Shown: positions 12,104 to 22,234, counted from the stretch's first letter. The stretch: DNA of 64,000 bases from Clostridiales bacterium (GCA_918244965.1 CAKJYC010000021.1:85025-149024); one strand, 5' to 3'. The notes: generated from the sequence alone by a model not told the origin. Numbers and translations are program-made.

Positions 12104-13258
12104 TCACTCCGTTTCCGGATCGTGCGGACTGTGCGAAAGCATCACATTGACCTCGAAAACGACACGCATTGTACGGTAATCCGCCTTCCAGTCGTACGCC
12201 TCCCAATCGGCTGCGGAATAGAACCGTTTTACCGCATACCGGCCGAAGCCCATTGCGTCGCTGTTTACATGCTGCAGCGCTTTCAAAACCGCATCAAGCT
12301 CCGTTTCAAGCTGTGCTTCCAGATATGCCTTCAGCGTTTCGCTCTCCATTGCGATCGTCTGCGGCGCATACGGATCCGCTTCAAGATACACGGTCACGGA
12401 CGCCTGCTGCCCGTCGATGCGGATCTTCGGCGCGTGCGTCCGGTACAGTGTCACACGAATCGTGTATCCGTCAGGCAAGCGGAACGCCAGCTCTCCCCTT
12501 CGGAACGCACCGGTCACCATCAGTGTCTCCATCGTGTGTCTGCCGTCCAGCACACCGACCATGCGATCGCCGTCGAATACCGCGCTGCCCGCAACAGATG
12601 TATTCAGCAAGCTCTCCACCAGCAGCGAACCGCCTACGATCGGATAGGCCTCGCCTCCCGGCAGGTCCTCCGTCAGCGTGTATTCATTTGTTCCCGCATA
12701 TGCAAGCATTGCATCAAATCCGGCACCCGATACGGCTTCCAGATACATGCTGTAACCCGTATCCGGCGTGATCCCGGACGACTTTTCAAGATCCCCCACT
12801 GCAGTCTTGATCCTGCGAAGCGAAGGATCCGCCTCGGAGATCCAGCCCTCGAATACGTCGCGTATCGGTTCTTTTGCGATCACGACGCGCAGGTTCGGCC
12901 AAAGGTCCGGCTTGCCGAACGCAAAGTTCAGAAACTCGGTTTGTTCTCCGCTGCGCGCAAGGTCCTCACCGATCGCCAGCAGCGAAGCACGTGCAAAACT
13001 CAGCCGGCTCGGATACGCAGCATTCAGCGTTTCATACGCCTCCGAGAACGACATTGCCTCCGCAGATATCACTTCGTTCCTGACCTTTGTTTCCTCCGAT
13101 CCGCCGGGCGATGAGACAACCAGCGTGACAAGGTACGGCATGGTCGTTCCGCGTTCGACGCCGACGTTCAGCACATATGCGTATTCGTCTATGTTCTTCG
13201 ACTGCATGCACGAGCAAAGCAGCGTGAGACAGAACAGGATCATTCCGATGCGGCGCAT
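12104..13258 (-). CDS. Ger(x)C family spore germination lipoprotein
   Basis: 384 aa. The lipobox signal is MRRIGMILFCLTLLCSC, and the N-terminus NIDEYAYVLNVGVE is typical of GerAC/GerKC. Confidence 0.85.
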   Translation of the reverse strand: MRRIGMILFCLTLLCSCMQSKNIDEYAYVLNVGVERGTTMPYLVTLVVSSPGGSEETKVRNEVISAEAMSFSEAYETLNAAYPSRLSFARASLLAIGEDLARSGEQTEFLNFAFGKPDLWPNLRVVIAKEPIRDVFEGWISEADPSLRRIKTAVGDLEKSSGITPDTGYSMYLEAVSGAGFDAMLAYAGTNEYTLTEDLPGGEAYPIVGGSLLVESLLNTSVAGSAVFDGDRMVGVLDGRHTMETLMVTGAFRRGELAFRLPDGYTIRVTLYRTHAPKIRIDGQQASVTVYLEADPYAPQTIAMESETLKAYLEAQLETELDAVLKALQHVNSDAMGFGRYAVKRFYSAADWEAYDWKADYRTMRVVFEVNVMLSHSPHDPETE

Positions 13259-14334
13259 GTACGCGTCCTCCTTTTTCGCCTGATCAGGATCAACGGGATC
13301 GGCACGGAGATCAGTGCCCAGCTGTTTTGATAGAGTCCCTGCAAGACGGCGACCGTCAGCTCGGAATCATAATAGAGCACGAGCATCAGCGTCACGGCAA
13401 TCCCGGACAGAAGCAGCGCGGGCGGGCGCGAATCCCTTACGCCGAATGTCTTTGCGAACAGCACGCAGGCTGCATACAGATAAAACGCCGCAATCAGCAC
13501 TGCAGCGCCGAGCCACAGAAACAGCACTGCACGGTCGAGCCGCAGTGTCGGATTCTCCGCGCGTACCTCGACAAGCATTCGATAGAACGGCGACGGCATC
13601 ATTTTCAGCTCGGTATACGGAAACGTGAGCGACAGGGCAAACAGCGCTGCGGCCGCGGTCAACCCGCCCGCGATCGCGCCGATCCGTCCGGCGTTGCGCA
13701 TGGCCATACGATCCTGCGTACCCTCTCCGATACACAAAAGCGCGAGAAGCGGCGCGCATGTACGCAGCTGCGCGCTGCCCGCCAGCATAAAGATCCCGTA
13801 CGGATCACGGAACGGGATCGGATACAGCCGATACCACCGGTACTGACCGAGTCCGGAAAGCAGTGCGGCCACGATCGACAGCAGCAGGATCGGAAGCAGC
13901 ACACGCGCGGTCCGTACGATCGTTTCCGCGCCGAGTACAGTCAGCAGAAACAGGCTCGGCAGCAGATACAGGCACACCGTTACCTGCTTGGATTCGACGA
14001 ATACGTATTCCGTGACTGTCACAAGAAAACTGCCGAGCGGCTGGATCGCCGCAATCAGGAGCGCAAGGATCAGCGGCACCGCAAGCGCTTTCTTCCATCG
14101 CGCATCGCCGATCAGCGCGGACAGATCGTTGCCGCCGCGTACACGCAGCGCCCAAACGACCGCTTCAAACAGCAGCAGCGATTGGATCAGCGCCAGGATC
14201 TGCACCAGATAGGATGCGTTTCCGTTGCCGAACAGTGCGCGGCTGTCGAACGAAAAGCAGCCGCCGATGAACGATGCAAGCAGCACGATCGCCGCGCTTT
14301 CCTGTTTTCCGAAAGTACCGATCCGCAGATTCAT
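13240..14334 (-). CDS. spore germination protein, GerAB-type (APC-like permease subunit)
   Basis: 364 aa from the ATG at 14334 (ATGA overlap with the GerAA-type stop), with about 10 TM segments. The upstream part of track ORF 13240..14787 overlaps the A-subunit gene and was trimmed. Confidence 0.8.
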   Translation of the reverse strand: MNLRIGTFGKQESAAIVLLASFIGGCFSFDSRALFGNGNASYLVQILALIQSLLLFEAVVWALRVRGGNDLSALIGDARWKKALAVPLILALLIAAIQPLGSFLVTVTEYVFVESKQVTVCLYLLPSLFLLTVLGAETIVRTARVLLPILLLSIVAALLSGLGQYRWYRLYPIPFRDPYGIFMLAGSAQLRTCAPLLALLCIGEGTQDRMAMRNAGRIGAIAGGLTAAAALFALSLTFPYTELKMMPSPFYRMLVEVRAENPTLRLDRAVLFLWLGAAVLIAAFYLYAACVLFAKTFGVRDSRPPALLLSGIAVTLMLVLYYDSELTVAVLQGLYQNSWALISVPIPLILIRRKRRTRTCAASE

Positions 14335-15920
14335 ACGCGCCTCCGTTCCGTGTTCGACCAGTCGTCTGCATGCGCTCTTTGCTGAAGCTTTCCCGAAAAC
14401 AGCAGATGCTCCCGATGCTTCGTCACCGGCGCATAAGGCGTGAAGAACGGTACGCCGAACGACTTGACTGAACACATGATCGCCGTTGCGCACAGTCCGA
14501 TCAACGTGATCCCCAGCAGCCCGCCGAGCGTAGCAAAGATACACAGCAGGACCCGGTAATACGCTGCAGCGACCTGCGCGCTGTAATCGGGGATCGTAAA
14601 GTTGCCGAGGCCGGTCAGTGCAACGATGATCAGCACAACGGTCGAAACGATATTGGCCGATACAGCCGCCTGTCCGAGCAAAAGTCCGCCGATGATGCCG
14701 ATGGCGTGTCCGATGGACCCCGGCACGCGAAGACCTGCCTCGCGAACCAGCTGAAAGACCAGAAGCAGGAAAATCATTTCCATCCACAGCGGCAGGAACA
14801 CCATTGCACGCGATGCGATCACCGTTTCCAGGATCTCGCTCGAAAGCTGTCCCGGATGATGCAGTGCAAGCGCAAGGAAGTACGCCGGCAGATAGGTCGA
14901 CACAAGCGCGCCAAGCATGCGAACGATGCGCACAACCGTCCCGACCGGCTGGCGCATATCGCGGTCCTCACCGCTTTCCATCAGCGTTCCGATCGTGATC
15001 GGCAGCACGCCCGCAAGCGGACAGCCCTCGACCAGCAGCGCGATCCGCCCGTCGAGCACAGCCGAAGCCGCGCGGTCCGGACGTTCGGTTTTCAGCATCT
15101 GCGGCAGCGGCAGATAGGTGAAATCCTCAATCAGCTGTTCGATCCGTCCGACGGTCAGGCGCATATCTGTCGAGATCGTATCCAACCGTCTTTTTACCTC
15201 GTTCAAAAGTGTCGGATTCACCGTCCCCTCCAGATATGCAAGCGCAAGCTGGGTCCGGTTCGACCCGCCGGAATCGCGGAATTCGCAGACAAAGTCCGGA
15301 CGCTTCAGAATGCGTCGCATGAGCGTTACGTTTGTGCGAATGTTTTCCGTGAACGCTTCCTTTGGTCCGAGGATCGTCGTCTCGTTCTGCGGCGCGCCGA
15401 CCGGTCGCGACACAAACCCGCGCGTATCGCAGAGGATCGCCTCCCCCGTCCCGTCGAGCAGAATTGCCGTCCGTCCTTCTGTGATCGCGCGGAGCACATC
15501 CTCCCGGCTTCGGGACAGTTCCGTTTCCTGCATGGACAGCGCATGATCCCGAAAATAAGCAGGCAGCTCCTTTGCGCCGACCGTTTCACGCATGCGGAAT
15601 GCGGGACGCAGAATGAAATCCGCGACCTTCGTATCGTCCGCCATGCCGTTCAGATTGACGGCAAGCGCTCTTCTGTCCGCACCGATACAGAACGGCCGAA
15701 GGATCAGGTCTGTGTTGATCTTCGCATGAAAGCATTCGCACAGCCAGTCGCGGTTTTCGTCGAGGCGACTGGACAGCGTTCCCTTCTCCCCGGTTCGTTT
15801 CGCGCGCCGCGCCCGGCTGCGTGCAAAAAAGGACGGCGTCCCAAGGGACTCCGTCTCTCTGAGTTCAAAACGCGTGTACGGCGCATCAAATTGCAGCAGT
15901 CTGCGGATCGCTTTCTTCAT
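14331..15920 (-). CDS. spore germination protein, GerAA/GerKA-type subunit
   Basis: 529 aa. Family-wide similarity (DLILRPF...GIADDTKV-like region, a conserved core, C-terminal TM cluster). It is the first gene of the A-B-C order. Confidence 0.9.
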   Translation of the reverse strand: MKKAIRRLLQFDAPYTRFELRETESLGTPSFFARSRARRAKRTGEKGTLSSRLDENRDWLCECFHAKINTDLILRPFCIGADRRALAVNLNGMADDTKVADFILRPAFRMRETVGAKELPAYFRDHALSMQETELSRSREDVLRAITEGRTAILLDGTGEAILCDTRGFVSRPVGAPQNETTILGPKEAFTENIRTNVTLMRRILKRPDFVCEFRDSGGSNRTQLALAYLEGTVNPTLLNEVKRRLDTISTDMRLTVGRIEQLIEDFTYLPLPQMLKTERPDRAASAVLDGRIALLVEGCPLAGVLPITIGTLMESGEDRDMRQPVGTVVRIVRMLGALVSTYLPAYFLALALHHPGQLSSEILETVIASRAMVFLPLWMEMIFLLLVFQLVREAGLRVPGSIGHAIGIIGGLLLGQAAVSANIVSTVVLIIVALTGLGNFTIPDYSAQVAAAYYRVLLCIFATLGGLLGITLIGLCATAIMCSVKSFGVPFFTPYAPVTKHREHLLFSGKLQQRAHADDWSNTERRRV

Positions 15921-15948
15921 ATGGAAAGCATGCGCAGTCTTCCGTGTT

Positions 15949-17013
15949 TTATACCGTTATGAAATCGGTCCGCTCCCTGACGATCCCGTGATCGAATTCA
16001 AACAGACGAAGAACGGACGACGCTTCGCACGCAACCGACAGCATATATTCGGTATCGAGCCGGATCAGAACCGTGCGCAGCGATCGATCCGTCGCGTTCT
16101 GTTTGATTGCGGGCATCGTCTGGTCTGTGCTGCGCTTGAACGCAGCTTCCTTGCGCGTCCACAGGTACGGAACGCGCAGCCGTTCCGGCAGCGATCGCAG
16201 CATCGCTTTTTCAACGTCGTTTGCGATCCGATCGATCAGCGTCTGCCGATACCGTACATCCTCTGCAGGTTCGATGTCAATGCCGACCGGCAAATTGGAA
16301 ACAGCGGCGGCAACCGCCGTTCTGCAGTGCGACAGCGAAATGCCGCACACCGCCGACGACCATCTTCCCCTTTCGTCTTTTGTCAGCCCGGCCGTTTCGG
16401 CGTCAAGCCCGTAGCTGTGCTCCAGGCCGTTCAGCAGCACTTCCCACGCCCGGTATCGCTGTGCTTTGACCGCATCGCTGTCCGTTGCGTCGATCTGCTC
16501 CTGCCTCTCCTTCGGTAACACCGGCTCGTATGCGACCGTATCCGGAATCCTTGCGATATACACATCGGTGACCGGAAGTCTGCAGGAAAACCATTCCGGC
16601 TCCATTTCCGTAAACCCTGCTGCCTCAAACATTCGGCGGCTTTGCATATTGAAAGAATAGATGTTTGCCTTGACCTCCGAAAAGCCTTTTTCCGCCGCAA
16701 GCGCAAGCATGTCGGCGATGCAGCGGCGTCCGATATGGCGGTTCTGATACTCCGGCGCAACGACGATGCAGATCTCCGCGTTGTCGCGCAAGGTTACATC
16801 GCCCGCAAGCGCACCGCGATACCGGATATAGAAGCATTCCCCGTGCGTGCTCAAATACGAATACATGCGGCCGAGCTTCTCCGCTGTATACGGCTCGTCG
16901 ACGTTGTCGACCTGCTTCACCAAAGCGGGGTCCTGATACCACGGCAGCGTCGTTTCCGGATCCGGATAGTACGGGATCAGCATAATCTCATCGTCTACAA
17001 TGCGTTCCTTCAT
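15949..17013 (-). CDS. fusion protein: N-terminal GNAT acetyltransferase plus C-terminal Sfp-type 4'-phosphopantetheinyl transferase
   Basis: 354 aa. Residues ~1-150 have the GNAT core (QNRHIGRRCIADMLALAAEKGF). The C-terminal half carries PPTase motifs ISLSH, VGIDIE and WTRKEAAFK, i.e. (F/W)(S/C/T)xKE(S/A)xxK. ATGA overlap with the upstream gene. Confidence 0.75.
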   Translation of the reverse strand: MKERIVDDEIMLIPYYPDPETTLPWYQDPALVKQVDNVDEPYTAEKLGRMYSYLSTHGECFYIRYRGALAGDVTLRDNAEICIVVAPEYQNRHIGRRCIADMLALAAEKGFSEVKANIYSFNMQSRRMFEAAGFTEMEPEWFSCRLPVTDVYIARIPDTVAYEPVLPKERQEQIDATDSDAVKAQRYRAWEVLLNGLEHSYGLDAETAGLTKDERGRWSSAVCGISLSHCRTAVAAAVSNLPVGIDIEPAEDVRYRQTLIDRIANDVEKAMLRSLPERLRVPYLWTRKEAAFKRSTDQTMPAIKQNATDRSLRTVLIRLDTEYMLSVACEASSVLRLFEFDHGIVRERTDFITV

Positions 17014-17996
17014 GCATTTTCCTTTCCGCGTTCACGGGTAATCAGCCGCATCAGCACAAATGTGATAGCACCGGACATCAGAATCACCAGAAGGTCGACC
17101 GGCGCAAGAACGATTCCGGGCAATCCGGCAAAGAAGATGCCTTCGCCGTACCGATACAGATGCCCGTGCAGCAGGATCATTTCTCCGACATACATCAAAA
17201 GCGTCGTGATCGCAGACGCCGCGGCAGGGATCCAGACCGCCGCAGCGCGTCTGCGTTTGATTACCAGCGATCCGACAAAGACGCCGAGCGTCACACCGAG
17301 CAGAATAAAGAATGCGGACATCAGCGAAGCGGACAGCGGAGAAACAGTGATGCTGCCATCGCGGTAGAATGCCGTGAAGCACGCGAGGATGCACAGGCCA
17401 AGGAAGAGCGCGGCCGCAACTGCCTGCAGAATCAGTGCCTTTCTTCTGTGCGTATCGCCGGTCCGCACCATCTGCGCAAAACCGTAGAGGCAGTTCAATA
17501 TCGCAAGGATCAGCACGACCGAGATCATGTAAAAATGCAGCTTGAACATGGGATCGTACTCGCCCATCAGGACCTCGACCGCCGTCAGCTGCTTGTACTC
17601 CGTGACGGTCGTTCCCCATCCTCCCGGCGGCTGATAGCACATCGCCATCTGCCAGGCTTCAAGCTTTGTTACGGTTTCCTCCGCTGTCACAATGATCCAT
17701 TCTTCAAACAGCAGCTCAATCCCGAAGAACGCGCCGACCGACAGCACCGCGCCGCCGACGAACGCAAAGCGCTTGAGCAGCTTGACAAACAGCGGCAATA
17801 CGAGCACACCGAGAATGACCGCAAATGCGATCGGCGTATAGGGAATCACGTACTTCGGGTAGTTTTCCTGCATCACCGTACCATCGCGGATCATATCGAC
17901 AAACACGCGGACGCCCATCATCAGCGGATAGATCGAAATGAGCAGCACGCCTAGCACAGCCAGCAGCCAGTAAACGGTCAGCTTCCTTGTTTTCAT
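17010..17996 (-). CDS. hypothetical polytopic (~8 TM) membrane protein
   Basis: 328 aa from the ATG at 17996 (MKTRKLTVYWLL...). The RBS AAGGAG overlaps the stop of the M56 gene. No family recognised. Confidence 0.55.
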   Translation of the reverse strand: MKTRKLTVYWLLAVLGVLLISIYPLMMGVRVFVDMIRDGTVMQENYPKYVIPYTPIAFAVILGVLVLPLFVKLLKRFAFVGGAVLSVGAFFGIELLFEEWIIVTAEETVTKLEAWQMAMCYQPPGGWGTTVTEYKQLTAVEVLMGEYDPMFKLHFYMISVVLILAILNCLYGFAQMVRTGDTHRRKALILQAVAAALFLGLCILACFTAFYRDGSITVSPLSASLMSAFFILLGVTLGVFVGSLVIKRRRAAAVWIPAAASAITTLLMYVGEMILLHGHLYRYGEGIFFAGLPGIVLAPVDLLVILMSGAITFVLMRLITRERGKENA

Positions 17997-18012
17997 ATTC
18001 GTTACGCTCCTT

Positions 18013-18921
18013 TCATGCAGCATTGGTCAGCAGGATATACGCGATCACACACGCCAGAATACCGAACCCGACAGCGGATGCGACCGTCATTTTGCGGAAG
18101 GATACGATGCGCTTTATGCGCGTGCGAAGCCTTGCTCCGCCGAACGCCGAGGCAAAGACCGTCAGGCTCTTCTGCGCGTTCAAAAGCGTATGCGCGTACC
18201 GTTTTTGTTCCTCTTCCGACAGCTTTGACAGCACCGATTCGTCGCACGCAAGCTCGACGTCGGACAGATACAGCTTCAGAAACACCCACGCAAGCGGATT
18301 GAACCAATGCAGCGCCGCCGCACAGAACGCGATCACGCGCCACAGGTTGTCCAGTCGCCGGATGTGTCTCTGCTCGTGAAGAACGATCAGGTCGAGGTCT
18401 TCGGAATCGAAAAGCTGTGTCGGAAGAATGATCCTCGGACGGAAGATCCCGTATGCCGCGGGGCTAGTGATCTTGTCAGAGCAATACACATTGTCATGCA
18501 TCCGCACGGCGTCCCTGAGTTCGGACACCGTCGCAAGATACACGATGATCATCGCAAGCAGCAGCGCGCCTGCAATCACAGCCCAGACGATCGACGCGAT
18601 CCGGAATACGTCGGCAAGCAGGTCGATCTTATATTCGATCGGAAAGTAGTGCTTTGCCGCCATTGTGTAGTTCGTCATTGTGGCAATTCTGCTGTTGTCA
18701 AAGATCTCGACCGTCCTTGTCGTATATCGCGACAGCAGCGACAGAAGACCGAATCTTCCTCCGATCCCGAACGGAATGAAGAATCGGATCAGCGGGATCG
18801 CCCACAGCACAGCAATCACGCGGCGCGGAATATGACGGATCAGGCGCAGCAGCAGGATGACGGCTCCCGCAATCGAACCCGCAATGCTCATATTGAAAAG
18901 CCAATAGAAAAGATCTCCCAT
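18013..18921 (-). CDS. M56 family (BlaR1/MecR1-type) membrane metalloprotease lacking an extracellular sensor domain
   Basis: 302 aa. It has the HEXXH motif as LHEQRHIRRLDN and multiple TM helices. The protein ends right after the last TM (…GFGILACVIAYILLTNAA). Confidence 0.8.
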   Translation of the reverse strand: MGDLFYWLFNMSIAGSIAGAVILLLRLIRHIPRRVIAVLWAIPLIRFFIPFGIGGRFGLLSLLSRYTTRTVEIFDNSRIATMTNYTMAAKHYFPIEYKIDLLADVFRIASIVWAVIAGALLLAMIIVYLATVSELRDAVRMHDNVYCSDKITSPAAYGIFRPRIILPTQLFDSEDLDLIVLHEQRHIRRLDNLWRVIAFCAAALHWFNPLAWVFLKLYLSDVELACDESVLSKLSEEEQKRYAHTLLNAQKSLTVFASAFGGARLRTRIKRIVSFRKMTVASAVGFGILACVIAYILLTNAA

Positions 18922-18924
18922 GCG

Positions 18925-19275
18925 TTATCTCCGGTCGATCAATGCGCGCAGCTCGCTGATTTCGTCGTCGGACAGCGTTTCGTCCTCCAGCAGCGCGGAA
19001 AACAGCGCCTTTTTTGACCCGGCAAAGAGCTTTTCGGCAAGGCCTTTCACCTCGCTTTTCTGGATCTCGCTCCTTGATATCCTTGACGTACAGACAAAGC
19101 CGGGGTCCGTCCGTTCGACGTAACCTTTGTCGATCAGTTTTTTCAGTACCGTATAGGTCGTGTTCTTGTTCCAGCCGATCTCTCCTGCCGCGATCAGACT
19201 GATCTCCTTTGCGCTGATCGGCTCGCGGCTCCAGATGATGTCCATCAGCTTGAGTTCGCTGTCAAATACCTTCAT
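18925..19275 (-). CDS. BlaI/MecI/CopY family transcriptional repressor
   Basis: 116 aa from the ATG at 19275 (RBS GGAGGG). MKVFDSELKLMDIIWSREPISAKEI...YTVLKKLIDKGYV is the typical winged-helix Penicillinase_R fold. Confidence 0.85.
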   Translation of the reverse strand: MKVFDSELKLMDIIWSREPISAKEISLIAAGEIGWNKNTTYTVLKKLIDKGYVERTDPGFVCTSRISRSEIQKSEVKGLAEKLFAGSKKALFSALLEDETLSDDEISELRALIDRR

Positions 19276-19285
19276 GCTTCCCTCC

Positions 19286-19332
19286 GGACTATTTCTGTAG
19301 TCCATACTATCACAGTAGTCTGCGCTTGTCAA
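19286..19332 (-). promoter_or_regulatory. promoter with two tandem operator-like dyads upstream of the BlaI-family gene
   Basis: The minus strand has TTGACA (19332-19327), a 17-nt spacer and TAGTAT (19309-19304). Dyads aGACTACtgtgaTAGT and GGACTAcagaaaTAGTCC overlap and follow the -10 hexamer. Confidence 0.45.
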
Positions 19333-19369
19333 GAATAAGTGCGCTGTTTCGACGCACCTTGCAAACACG

Positions 19370-20047
19370 CTATTTGGACCGTGTCATGCGGAAGCTGTCG
19401 GCGATCAGATCCATGACCGCATCGTCAGAAAGCGTCTCGTCCAGCGTGACCGTGATCCAGCTTTTATGGTTCATGTGATATGCGGGATAGACGCCTGCGC
19501 ACGTCGATCGGTCCTCTTCCGGATCGCGTTTCAGATTGAGAGCGTCGATCATCGTTGCGTCGCCGTCCTTCGTCAAAAGCCCCTTGCGGATGTGCATGAT
19601 CAGCGCAAACCACTTGCCGCTGTCCGTATGACGGAACACGCCGGAATGTTCATGCGGGCTCTTTCCCCACGGGAAGTCCGGCCGGACGCCGTACCGGTCA
19701 AGTATCTGCTCCGTGACCCGGTTCGCCTGCTCGGAATCGAACGTGACCTCGCGGCAGCAATGCGCGGCGATTCTTTGCAATACATCCTCGTACGCAGCGC
19801 GCACTGCGTTCACATACGCGCCGTTGAAGCGCTCCGCCCGCAGCGGCGCGTAGAGTTCGCCGTTCATGTTGTCGACGACAGATCCCGTGACCGCACCGTC
19901 CCCGGCGACCGTGACCGCTGCGGAAAAATCGCCGTTCAGAAAGTCGGTTGTATAGACGTATCCGGCGTCGGTTCTGCAAAAGCCGTAGGAAAGCATCGCT
20001 TCTGGAACAAAGCGTCTGCGCGAAAACGCCTTCTCTTCTATCGTCAT
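19370..20047 (-). CDS. MmcQ/YjbR family protein with an N-terminal extension
   Basis: 225 aa from the ATG at 20047 (RBS GGAGGG). The C-terminal ~115 aa (PDFPWGKSPHEHSGVFRH...KWFALIMHI...HMNHKSWITV) match the YjbR fold family. Confidence 0.65.
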   Translation of the reverse strand: MTIEEKAFSRRRFVPEAMLSYGFCRTDAGYVYTTDFLNGDFSAAVTVAGDGAVTGSVVDNMNGELYAPLRAERFNGAYVNAVRAAYEDVLQRIAAHCCREVTFDSEQANRVTEQILDRYGVRPDFPWGKSPHEHSGVFRHTDSGKWFALIMHIRKGLLTKDGDATMIDALNLKRDPEEDRSTCAGVYPAYHMNHKSWITVTLDETLSDDAVMDLIADSFRMTRSK

Positions 20048-20051
20048 TTTG

Positions 20052-20525
20052 TCATCCCTCCGGCCGGTCGATCCGATAGTACTTGAAGGATTCGTCCTCC
20101 CCGATCTGCGTAAAGCCGACCTTTTCCAGCACATGCCGGCTGCGCGTATTCGGTCGGATCGAATCGGCGTACAGTGTCGGGATATCGAGCTTGTCAAACA
20201 CATACTGCACCGCAAGCCGCTCCGCCTGCGTCCCGATTCCGCGATCCTTATACGATGCGTTTTTCAGGCACAGTCCCATCGTCGCGCATTTGCGGTCCTC
20301 AATGTTCTTCAGCACGATCTCGCCGACGATTTCGCCGTCAAGCATGATTGCAAGCGGGATCCGTCCGAGATCGATCTGGCGCTGTACATACCGGTCGACC
20401 GTTTCCGCATCGTATACGTATGGCTTACACTTTGACGGATCGAGATACAGCTCCGGGCTGTTTTTATACCCCTTCATGTATTGATGATACATTTCGCGCG
20501 TCATGGGCTTCAATGTGATGTTCAT
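20052..20525 (-). CDS. GNAT family N-acetyltransferase
   Basis: 157 aa with a RimJ/RimL-like pattern (YKDRGIGTQAERLAVQYVFDKLD...NTRSRHVLEKVGF). Confidence 0.8.
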   Translation of the reverse strand: MNITLKPMTREMYHQYMKGYKNSPELYLDPSKCKPYVYDAETVDRYVQRQIDLGRIPLAIMLDGEIVGEIVLKNIEDRKCATMGLCLKNASYKDRGIGTQAERLAVQYVFDKLDIPTLYADSIRPNTRSRHVLEKVGFTQIGEDESFKYYRIDRPEG

Positions 20526-20623
20526 GCGAATCTCCGATCCTTATGATGGTTCAATGTTTCCGAACAGCCGGCATGCTCCAACCGTTTTGGGGCGGCATTT
20601 GCTTTTCTGCAGTATTGTACAGC

Positions 20624-21547
20624 CTATGCGAGAAACCGCACGATCTCTCCGAACACGGCAGGATCCGGTTCCATCATTCTTTTGGTCGGCTTGTCGCGGA
20701 AAAAGGCCTTCTTCTCCTCCGCGGTATTGATCTCCTTGCTGTACACCGCACGGTTGTATTCGCCGATCCAGGCGTTCATCGTGTCCAGCGCCTCTTTGGT
20801 ATACTGCGGCATGTGCTTTTTGTTCTCGACCGTCATCACGCGCACATTCGGATTGCCGAGCTTCTTTGCCTGTCCGGCGTTGTATCGATAGCCGACCACC
20901 GGATCATCCGTCGAATGGATCCACAGAATGCTGTCCTTCGTGCAAGCAAGATACGCCCGATTGTCTAAAGCGGAAAACCGGGGAATGCGCTTCTTTTCAT
21001 ACTTCTTTACGCGGTTTGCGAGAATGCGCAGCTTTACAAAGCCCATCATTTCATCGGCAATGCTCAAAAAGCCGGAGATGATGACCGCGCGCTTTACTTG
21101 AGGCAGATCGTTTGCAAGGTTCAATGCCGTATAGCCGCCGAGCGAGTGTCCCACCGGGATAATCTCCTCCTTCGGCGCAAGATGCGCCAAAAGCTCCTCT
21201 GCGTCGCGCGTCGGCGCGTTGACGGAGGTTAACCGTTCTCCGCCCGAAGTGCCGCAGCCCGCATAATCAAGCGCCGTCACCCTGTAACCGGCTCTGCACA
21301 GCTGCTCTATATCGACCGTGTACGGCGCATGTCCGGCCCCGAGCCCGTGGAGAAACAGGATTCGCTTATCCCTTTTGAACCCCTCGTAGCAATACGTGCA
21401 GTACCGGATTTCTACGCCTTCCGAGTTTTGAAACGAGCCGCGCTCGCAGATGAGCCCCGGATAATCCGCAGGGCCCGGAAACGGGATTTCATCCGGATCA
21501 TATCGCTTCATAAAGTTTTCCCGATACTTCTTTACAATCAAACCCAT
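20624..21547 (-). CDS. alpha/beta hydrolase
   Basis: 307 aa from the ATG at 21547 (RBS AAAGGAG). It has the nucleophile elbow GHSLGG and an HG motif (LFLHGLGAGH). Confidence 0.75.
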   Translation of the reverse strand: MGLIVKKYRENFMKRYDPDEIPFPGPADYPGLICERGSFQNSEGVEIRYCTYCYEGFKRDKRILFLHGLGAGHAPYTVDIEQLCRAGYRVTALDYAGCGTSGGERLTSVNAPTRDAEELLAHLAPKEEIIPVGHSLGGYTALNLANDLPQVKRAVIISGFLSIADEMMGFVKLRILANRVKKYEKKRIPRFSALDNRAYLACTKDSILWIHSTDDPVVGYRYNAGQAKKLGNPNVRVMTVENKKHMPQYTKEALDTMNAWIGEYNRAVYSKEINTAEEKKAFFRDKPTKRMMEPDPAVFGEIVRFLA

Positions 21548-22160: not shown

Positions 22161-22234
22161 TGGCAGGGGCAGAAGGACTCGAACCCTCAAGAACGGTTTT
22201 GGAGACCGCTATGTTACCATTACATCATGCCCCT
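22161..22234 (-). tRNA. trnW: tRNA-Trp (anticodon CCA), CCA end encoded
   Basis: Hand-folded cloverleaf. Acceptor AGGGGCA/TGCCCCT. D-arm ATGT-aatggta-ACAT. Anticodon arm GCGGT-CTCCAAA-ACCGT. T-arm GAGGG-TTCGAGT-CCTTC. 74 nt. Confidence 0.9.

Follow-up and report, generated by a model that had tools for sequence, protein, structure and literature searches.

A conserved blaI-M56-TM8 gene module with a tail-less BlaR1-type protease and a predicted tandem operator in gut and rumen Clostridia, a probable envelope-signalling system

Among about 15,000 M56 proteins surveyed by Kurtz et al. 2026 (PMC13492132), ~6% carried a penicillin-binding domain; the commonest M56 architecture had no identifiable C-terminal domain, and 96% lay near a BlaI homologue. 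The same study showed that the CenIR pair of C. difficile controls an adjacent gene whose exported product has no known function, and an example of the BlaIR type has also been reported in P. aeruginosa. BlaIR-type systems are now recognised as being, for the most part, unrelated to beta-lactams. Here we describe such a locus in a stretch of 64,000 nucleotides (nt) from a Clostridiales bacterium (GCA_918244965.1, CAKJYC010000021.1:85025-149024), referred to below as the window. A first-pass annotation made from the sequence alone had described four genes in the window as an operon of a BlaI-type repressor and an M56 protease, whose cargo was a protein with eight transmembrane (TM) helices, here TM8, and a fusion of a GNAT acetyltransferase with a phosphopantetheinyl transferase (PPTase), here gene 4. 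We propose that the locus is probably a self-contained, autoregulated envelope-signalling module consisting of three of these genes, blaI-M56-TM8.

The four genes are co-directional on the minus strand between positions 15949 and 19275, and their features coincide with the places first assigned to them, exactly or to within a few bases (Table 1). Between the blaI TAA stop and the M56 ATG at 18921 lie 3 nt, in agreement with the earlier description of this gap (18921/18925). The M56 TGA (18015-18013) directly abuts the AAGGAG ribosome-binding site (RBS) of TM8 (18012-18007), and the TM8 ATG follows 10 nt on, at 17996; the two elements are adjacent as had been noted, with the stop codon abutting the RBS rather than embedded in it. 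A longer TM8 open reading frame (ORF) starting at 18023 is possible from the ORF listing, and the homologues and the NCBI gene call (328 residues) favour 17996. The ATGA overlap described between TM8 and gene 4 is real (17013-17010).

When one genome per species was scanned, TM8 was found in 303 species; the locus counts given here rest on 80 fetched loci, which were searched with the window's own proteins and belong to Oscillospiraceae, Lachnospiraceae, Acutalibacteraceae and others. In 51 of these 80 species-level loci, BlaI, M56 and TM8 were encoded on one strand in this order. The M56-TM8 pair was cut by a contig end in 4 further loci, the upstream sequence was too short to judge in another 4, and TM8 stood in unrelated contexts in the remaining 21. 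In most of the 55 linked loci M56 and TM8 were 16 nt apart, and the arrangement held even for a TM8 homologue with 38% identity. After all flanking ORFs were clustered, no other gene family recurred in more than 11 of 82 loci, indicating that the cassette sits in variable surroundings, and a conserved fourth gene was rejected on the same count. A terminator after TM8 was seen in only 11 of the 55 linked loci by a crude scan. The synteny expected from the first-pass annotation therefore held in part: TM8 is the conserved cargo, as had been claimed, whereas gene 4 did not follow TM8 in any of the 80 loci. Judged by gene order, the functional unit is blaI-M56-TM8, and it is present in more than 50 species of gut or rumen Clostridia. 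No published description of this gene composition was found in the literature searched, as the first-pass annotation had also indicated.

The promoter predicted upstream of blaI, TTGACA-17-TAGTAT, was confirmed as the best promoter-like site in an 8-kb scan (13000-21000), with 10 of 12 matches and a TG extension. Two tandem dyads at its -10 and +1 positions had been described as sharing GACTAC-N5-TAGT. Both are present, and a pair of palindromes of 16 bp, each written GACTAY-N4-ATAGTM, describes them better. At up to 2 mismatches the operator motif occurs 3 times in the window, compared with 0.71 occurrences expected. When the 120 nt upstream of blaI were compared among the 51 orthologous loci, a 46-nt promoter/operator element was almost invariant in 50 of them, with the consensus TTGACAAnnnCAGACTATTGTGATAGTATAGACTATAGaAATAGTC, after which come GGAGG and the start codon. 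The element has the form TTGACA..GACTAT-N4-ATAGTA-TA-GACTAT-N4-ATAGTC; in the same 50 loci both promoter hexamers are kept and the two palindromes of the predicted operator overlap the -10 and +1. We consider this conservation, rather than the chance expectation, as the decisive evidence for the significance of the dyads. Within 850 kb of fetched loci, GACTAT-N4-ATAGTC with at most 1 mismatch was almost confined to the position before blaI.

The first gene encodes a repressor of the BlaI/MecI/CopY type, as had been assigned. PF03965 covers residues 5-114 of its 116 amino acids, and the protein aligns over its full length to MecI (1okr, E=2e-10) and to BlaI (1sd4). It has the features of the family, namely an N-terminal winged-helix DNA-binding domain and a C-terminal helical dimerisation domain in a protein of about 115-130 residues. 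The 51 orthologues are 59-89% identical, and the recognition helix GWNKNTTYT is invariant in all of them. CopY-like metal sensing was rejected, since the C-terminal CxCx4-5CxC motif was present in none of 50 orthologues examined, with no cysteine in the last 30 residues; the score against the best NCBIfam match, TIGR02698 (CopY), was 61 bits, with a cut-off of 122.

The second gene encodes a short M56 peptidase. PF05569 matched with 147 bits against a cut-off of 31, and the HEQRH motif is accompanied by invariant residues H182, E183, H186, E223, D227 and E228. The sequence aligns to residues 164-321 of S. aureus BlaR1, stopping at TM helix 4 (TM4), and the protein extends only 3 residues past its last TM helix. 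Its AlphaFold2 (AF2) model (mean predicted local distance difference test score, pLDDT, 77) matched the BlaR1 structures 8exq, 8exp and 8exr in Foldseek with a probability of 1.0; the TM-score was 0.63 against 8exr_A, the TM and zinc-protease construct of BlaR1 (probability 1.0). No penicillin-binding (transpeptidase-like) sensor domain is present in the protein or in its 120 nearest database homologues (52-96% identity), which are 294-318 residues long and carry PF05569 only. Fifty orthologues from the loci have 302-311 residues with HExxH in all, and across 39-50 orthologues no variation was seen in HExxH and in about 50 further columns. Since the protein ends at TM4 and scores far under the cut-off of NCBIfam blaR1_generic (82 versus 400 bits), we regard it as an M56/BlaR1-N-terminal-domain protein and not as a BlaR1 sensor-transducer. 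The uniform orthologue lengths and the PF05569-only architecture refute the reading of this copy as a truncated pseudogene. The label "sensor-less" given to the protease is correct for the absence of the domain, and it does not mark the protein as unusual, since penicillin-binding domains are limited to ~6% of M56 proteins (PMC13492132).

Two regions of the protease are conserved and have low model confidence. The outer loop of about 50 residues (52-105) contains the invariant residues T70, V71, N84, A89, Y92 and P94. The loop 252-271 (FASAFGGA.IRTRI) aligns with the autocleavage region of BlaR1, an alignment that is suggestive only. Frameshifts or stops interrupt some M56 copies, and blaI in L121 (loci L121, L091:3076-3984, L023 and L056); either errors of assembly or occasional regulator decay with TM8 intact would account for them. 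A second, different BlaI pair was observed in L025:1709-4598, where an M56 protein of 649 residues with a ~330-residue unannotated extracellular region is followed by a 191-residue membrane protein, showing that short and long BlaR types coexist.

The operator is also found outside the three-gene arrangement. Among the orphan TM8 loci, TM8 is directly preceded by it, with no blaI-M56, in L054, L071, L031 and L048, and in the last two an M56 3' tail is apparently retained before TM8, as read from the sequence. Metagenome contigs were then scanned for the tandem operator, and 80 loci were fetched among the matches listed, so the class counts are lower bounds. The operator is followed by blaI in most classes: at least 22 loci have blaI-M56-(x)-TM8, at least 9 have blaI-M56 without TM8 within at least 2.6 kb, and at least 30 have blaI and then the contig end. 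It stands directly before TM8 in at least 4 loci (L117, L153, L159, L161), and directly before a lipoprotein gene in at least about 8. TM8 was thus missing from 9 of the 31 informative operator-blaI-M56 loci among the matches listed; in 5 of 6 such TM8-less loci that were inspected, a lipoprotein gene immediately follows M56. This operator was also seen before a blaI-M56 pair that stands alone.

The operator-linked lipoproteins have a signal peptide and a lipobox Cys, and they form at least three unannotated families, of ~270-287 residues, of ~141-146 residues with the motif GLDVVVWQM..SYSFGLL, and of ~370-404 residues; a further type of 221-224 residues was found directly after M56. Lipoprotein-bearing loci include L164, L177, L170 and L132; L171, L134 and L147; L157, L110 and L019; and L109, L168 and L172. 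In several genomes, members of at least two of the families are inserted between M56 and TM8. The classes of the operator scan define a regulon of blaI-M56 together with TM8 and/or lipoproteins, and its targets are all membrane-anchored and probably outward-facing. Because the operator stands before TM8 alone, and a lipoprotein replaces TM8 in some operons, we consider TM8 a regulated cargo and not a required sensor. Going by these gene contents, M56 does not need TM8 in cis.

TM8 belongs to a large family without annotation. More than 2700 homologues were found, and the top 120, at 60-91% identity, had neither a Pfam domain nor an informative name; clustering at 50% identity gave 237 representatives from 1.84 billion proteins. 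No family match was obtained in Pfam (E<=10), NCBIfam, PADLOC or PHROGs, a profile search against PDB sequences gave no match, and no copy was found in plasmid and phage collections by tblastn. In the AF2 model (pLDDT 75, predicted TM-score 0.75), eight long helices are accompanied by a beta-hairpin at 102-138. Foldseek found no fold match for it in the PDB (best E=0.59), and comparison of the N- and C-terminal halves with hhalign detected no internal repeat. By the positive-inside rule, both termini are predicted to be cytoplasmic. E98, Q116 and H154 are invariant across the family, and E94, R212, E272 and D301 nearly so. The predicted topology would place these residues in outer loops or where helices end on the outer side, and the invariant Glu, His and Gln residues on this putative outer face suggest an outward-facing catalytic or binding site. 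A CPBP/Rce1-like glutamate protease (E-x3-E / F-x2-H motifs) was considered and rejected, since the motif spacing differs and PF02517 did not match.

A long form of TM8, with a ninth helix and a conserved extracytoplasmic domain of 250-290 residues without a Pfam match, was present in 10 of the 55 linked loci (the 3' extension is carried by L016, L020, L022, L025, L028, L050, L053, L063, L079 and L082, and also by representative P0122). Representative P0127 has an N-terminal BspA-type leucine-rich repeat (LRR) region in place of the 3' extension. Among 20 long family members there was no M56::TM8 fusion; their extensions were an LRR_5 region or unannotated extracytoplasmic domains.

In the mechanism that we propose, a dimer of the BlaI-family protein would bind the two tandem 16-bp palindromes overlapping the -10 and the start of a predicted strong sigma-70 promoter, and would keep the operon off. 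M56, the counterpart of BlaR1's TM and zinc-protease part and without any domain after the last helix, would serve as the anti-repressor. Upon a cue, probably read through its membrane helices or through the conserved outer loop, M56 would cleave or inactivate BlaI, and the operon would be derepressed. Ionophores and antibiotics were considered as the cue, and the literature searched yielded nothing pertinent to them. The output would be a surface-exposed protein, with TM8 as the usual cargo and one or more unannotated lipoproteins in other genomes. The family assignments and the conservation support the first-pass annotation in placing the locus among modules of the proteolytic-derepression type.

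Several observations weigh against this mechanism. The residues aligned to the scissile N101-F102 of MecI/BlaI are Ala-Leu, in the conserved segment ALFSALLED, and the Asn-Phe bond that defines the proteolytically inactivated BlaI/MecI proteins is not present in the BlaI homologue by this alignment; cleavage may take place at ALFSALLED or elsewhere. Operators of the bla, mec and cop systems are of the TACA/TGTA type, from which GACTAT-N4-ATAGTC differs. The TM8 model is only moderate in confidence and matches no known fold. TM8 is not always under control of the operator, given the 21 of 80 genes in unrelated contexts, and nearly all TM8 carriers are metagenome-assembled genomes of uncultured gut or rumen bacteria; the mouse-gut Oscillospiraceae isolate B83_8_IP_BP (L059) carries an unlinked TM8. 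Finally, a stoichiometric complex of M56 and TM8 would also be compatible with the tight geometry of translational coupling between their genes.

Such a complex is the core of one alternative, that TM8 is the input and takes the place of the missing extracellular sensor domain, so that it would bind the signal and relay it to the tail-less M56 in the membrane; if TM8 also acted as an effector, a feedback resembling flux sensing would result. An M56 protein without any extracytoplasmic tail would be in keeping with this, and the adjacency of the two genes, with the same 16-nt stop/RBS junction in most linked loci, suggests coupled and roughly equimolar synthesis. In both proteins, a beta-hairpin carrying conserved residues is also predicted to be exposed at the outer face, and the extra domain of the long TM8 form would be extracytoplasmic. 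However, the orphan TM8 genes include deletion derivatives which keep the promoter/operator, nearly a third of the informative operator-blaI-M56 loci lack TM8 and usually have a lipoprotein gene in third place, the blaI-M56 pair can stand alone behind the same operator, and the two proteins were never found fused. The suggestion that the 8-TM protein provides the input is weakened by these data, and we consider it unlikely.

A more far-reaching version of the three-gene module is about as doubtful, and is offered as speculation. The tail-less M56 might be a minimal BlaR reading the state of the membrane or envelope directly or via co-expressed TM8 or lipoproteins, the cassette might be a horizontally spread, inducible determinant of protection or repair in gut Clostridia, and TM8 might be an integral-membrane enzyme of new fold whose Glu/His site faces outwards. 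By analogy with the mecI-mecR1 deletions in methicillin-resistant S. aureus, lineages that have lost blaI-M56 and kept the promoter could then be variants with constitutive expression.

The proposal that BlaI/M56 controls TM8 and gene 4 as one unit, with acyl or 4'-phosphopantetheinyl transfer as the output, fared worse, and we regard it as very improbable. The ATGA overlap, shared by close relatives, makes co-transcription of gene 4 with TM8 likely in this genome, and no terminator was found before or after gene 4. Gene 4 contains a GNAT domain (PF00583/PF13302) and an ACPS domain (PF01648, 33 bits versus a cut-off of 25), and its C-terminal half has the GxDxE and WxxKE(A/S)xxK motifs of Sfp/EntD-type enzymes, read as GIDIE and WTRKEAAFK and kept in homologues. 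With these catalytic motifs intact the PPTase is probably functional. All NCBIfam equivalog scores of gene 4 are far under their cut-offs (EntD 36 versus 169). In addition to the absence of gene 4 behind TM8 elsewhere, eight or more assemblies of close relatives encode a GNAT protein of 151-154 residues from which the PPTase half has been deleted. The window and its closest relatives are collinear at about 91% nucleotide identity over 20537-16589 and at about 82% from 15957 onwards, and this break at the PPTase indel suggests a recombination breakpoint inside gene 4.

The only other full-length GNAT::PPTase fusion, at 62% identity, was found in L086, so that the fusion is known from two lineages only. 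L086 is collinear with the window from the start of gene 4 through gerABC at 76% nucleotide identity, yet it has no BlaI module; upstream of its gene 4 are a tRNA-Trp (L086:1-63), a 100-residue ORF and a PadR-HAAS-DUF4097 operon. In the window, tRNA-Trp is followed by genes for an alpha/beta-hydrolase, a GNAT protein, YjbR and blaI-M56-TM8, and then by the GNAT::PPTase-gerABC backbone. This collinearity indicates that the BlaI module lies in a variable segment between tRNA-Trp and the backbone. Elsewhere, each domain of gene 4 is found by itself or in fusions with many other, unrelated domains. Hence, neither the membership of gene 4 in the module nor the acyl/4'-phosphopantetheinyl-transfer output was borne out; the fusion behind a different operon in L086 and the loss of the PPTase half in relatives make this output a local accident of gene order. 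On the evidence of gene neighbourhoods, the GNAT::PPTase is a bystander, a conserved backbone gene beside gerA. A stand-alone PPTase homologue, P0273, was observed to start with a remnant of the GNAT N-terminus (MEERIIDRKIT), indicating that the fusion lost either half in different lineages.

That the M56 gene is a truncated blaR1 in a decaying beta-lactamase or copper regulon, as the low BlaR1 and CopY family scores and the lack of a beta-lactamase, penicillin-binding protein or copper ATPase gene in the operon might suggest, is refuted by the conservation of M56 length (294-318 residues), of HExxH and about 50 other columns, of the operator and of the gene junctions, and by the uniform absence of the CopY Cys motif, and we give it almost no weight.

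Table 1. Features of the blaI-M56-TM8 locus and its surroundings, in positions of the window
Feature	Position	Strand	Description
blaI-like repressor gene	18925-19275	minus	116 aa (amino acids); RBS GGAGG at 19285-19281; PF03965 E=1e-23
Short M56 (BlaR1 N-terminal-domain-only) membrane zinc protease gene	18013-18921	minus	302 aa; HEQRH at residues 182-186; PF05569 E=1e-42
TM8 gene, polytopic 8-helix membrane protein of an unannotated family	17010-17996	minus	328 aa; conserved cargo
Sigma-70-type promoter (predicted)	19304-19332	minus	TTGACA (19332-19327), 17-nt spacer with TG, TAGTAT (19309-19304)
Operator dyad 1 (predicted), GACTACTGTGATAGTA	19305-19320	minus	right half-site overlaps the -10 hexamer; family consensus GACTATTGTGATAGTA
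Operator dyad 2 (predicted), GACTACAGAAATAGTC	19287-19302	minus	covers the predicted +1; 18 bp centre-to-centre from dyad 1
GNAT::Sfp/EntD-type PPTase fusion (gene 4)	15949-17013	minus	354 aa; Pfam GNAT + ACPS; lineage-specific neighbour
PPTase-half segment	15958-16588	minus	631 bp, with 74 bp instead in close relatives; blastn against L005, L090, L092 and L094
gerA, first gene of the GerA/GerB/GerC operon	14331-15920	minus	28 nt downstream of gene 4; PF03323 E=4e-133
YjbR/MmcQ-family gene	19370-20047	minus	next to the module, upstream
tRNA-Trp	22161-22234	minus	far edge of the variable segment holding the module

Beyond the module, no terminator-like site was found by a terminator scan in the 28-nt gap (15921-15948) before gerA, as had been stated, and read-through into gerA is possible. 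In this genome the transcript would probably continue into gene 4 and perhaps towards gerA, a lineage-specific feature outside the system. The element GTATAAAA..TGCGCATGC just upstream of the gerA ATG (15921-15960) is conserved in four lineages, among them those in which it falls between genes and does not form the end of gene 4. Such conservation is a hint that ger has a promoter of its own, and the element may be that promoter or another regulatory element. The YjbR/MmcQ gene lies immediately downstream of TM8 in L002 (6985-7653) and 4 kb away in L068 (7913-8578). It was rejected as a member of the module, being adjacent in three differing arrangements only, and its position may reflect a loose association or coincidence.

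The module offers a clean and widespread example of the BlaIR type, with the smallest possible BlaR and an operator so sharply defined that the regulon can be read from sequence. Its targets are consistently surface proteins, comprising the TM8 family and several unannotated lipoprotein families, and the operator thus provides a regulatory handle on protein families without annotation. It is also a tractable route to learning how an M56 protease that lacks a sensor domain becomes active.

Compared with the BlaI/BlaR1 and MecI/MecR1 systems of S. aureus (8exp-8ext, 1okr, 1sd4), the locus shares the PF03965 winged-helix repressor, the HExxH M56 fold (Foldseek probability 1.0), a repressor gene directly before the protease gene and paired dyads, here as predicted operators, over the promoter. 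In contrast, its M56 stops at the equivalent of BlaR1 TM4 without the penicillin-binding sensor domain, its cargo is neither a beta-lactamase nor PBP2a and is encoded after the regulators within one operon, its predicted operator is GACTAT-N4-ATAGTC instead of TACA/TGTA, and the residues at the cleavage position are A-L instead of N-F. CopY/TcrY repressors belong to the same family; they are set apart by the family score (61 versus 122 bits) and the missing CxCx4-5CxC motif, and here there is no copper ATPase in the operon and an M56 partner is present. The Sfp/EntD PPTases and RimJ/RimL-type GNATs resemble gene 4 in its ACPS domain, PPTase motifs and N-terminal GNAT fold, whereas the equivalog scores of gene 4 are far below the cut-offs and the fusion was found in two lineages only. 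BlaX of C. difficile (bioRxiv 10.1101/630020) is likewise an uncharacterised polytopic membrane protein under BlaI control, co-transcribed with a beta-lactamase; as described, it differs from TM8 in having 5 TM helices and a ~125-residue loop where TM8 has 8 helices, and TM8 has no beta-lactamase companion.

The non-canonical mycobacterial BlaI/BlaR systems, as cited in PMC13492132, also pair a short M56 without a sensor domain with BlaI. By that description they belong to another phylum, their regulon is reported to involve other functions (energy metabolism in M. abscessus), and no TM8-type cargo appears. CenIR (PMC13492132) is also a BlaIR pair without a beta-lactam-binding (transpeptidase) domain, in an organism of the Clostridium class, and has an adjacent gene for an extracytoplasmic protein as its main target and a proposed envelope role. 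CenR, however, has a ~125-residue, mostly unstructured extracellular tail, which the M56 protein here lacks, and CDR_0474, on which CenIR acts, is a small exported protein found in C. difficile only, whereas an 8-TM protein and lipoproteins are found here across genera, the cargos being compared by description only. BlaIR systems not linked to beta-lactams are already known, and by analogy the present module would work like that class. As far as its genes and operator tell, it differs in an M56 protein without any tail, an operator of its own, a distribution over many genera, and a cargo of TM8 and lipoproteins.

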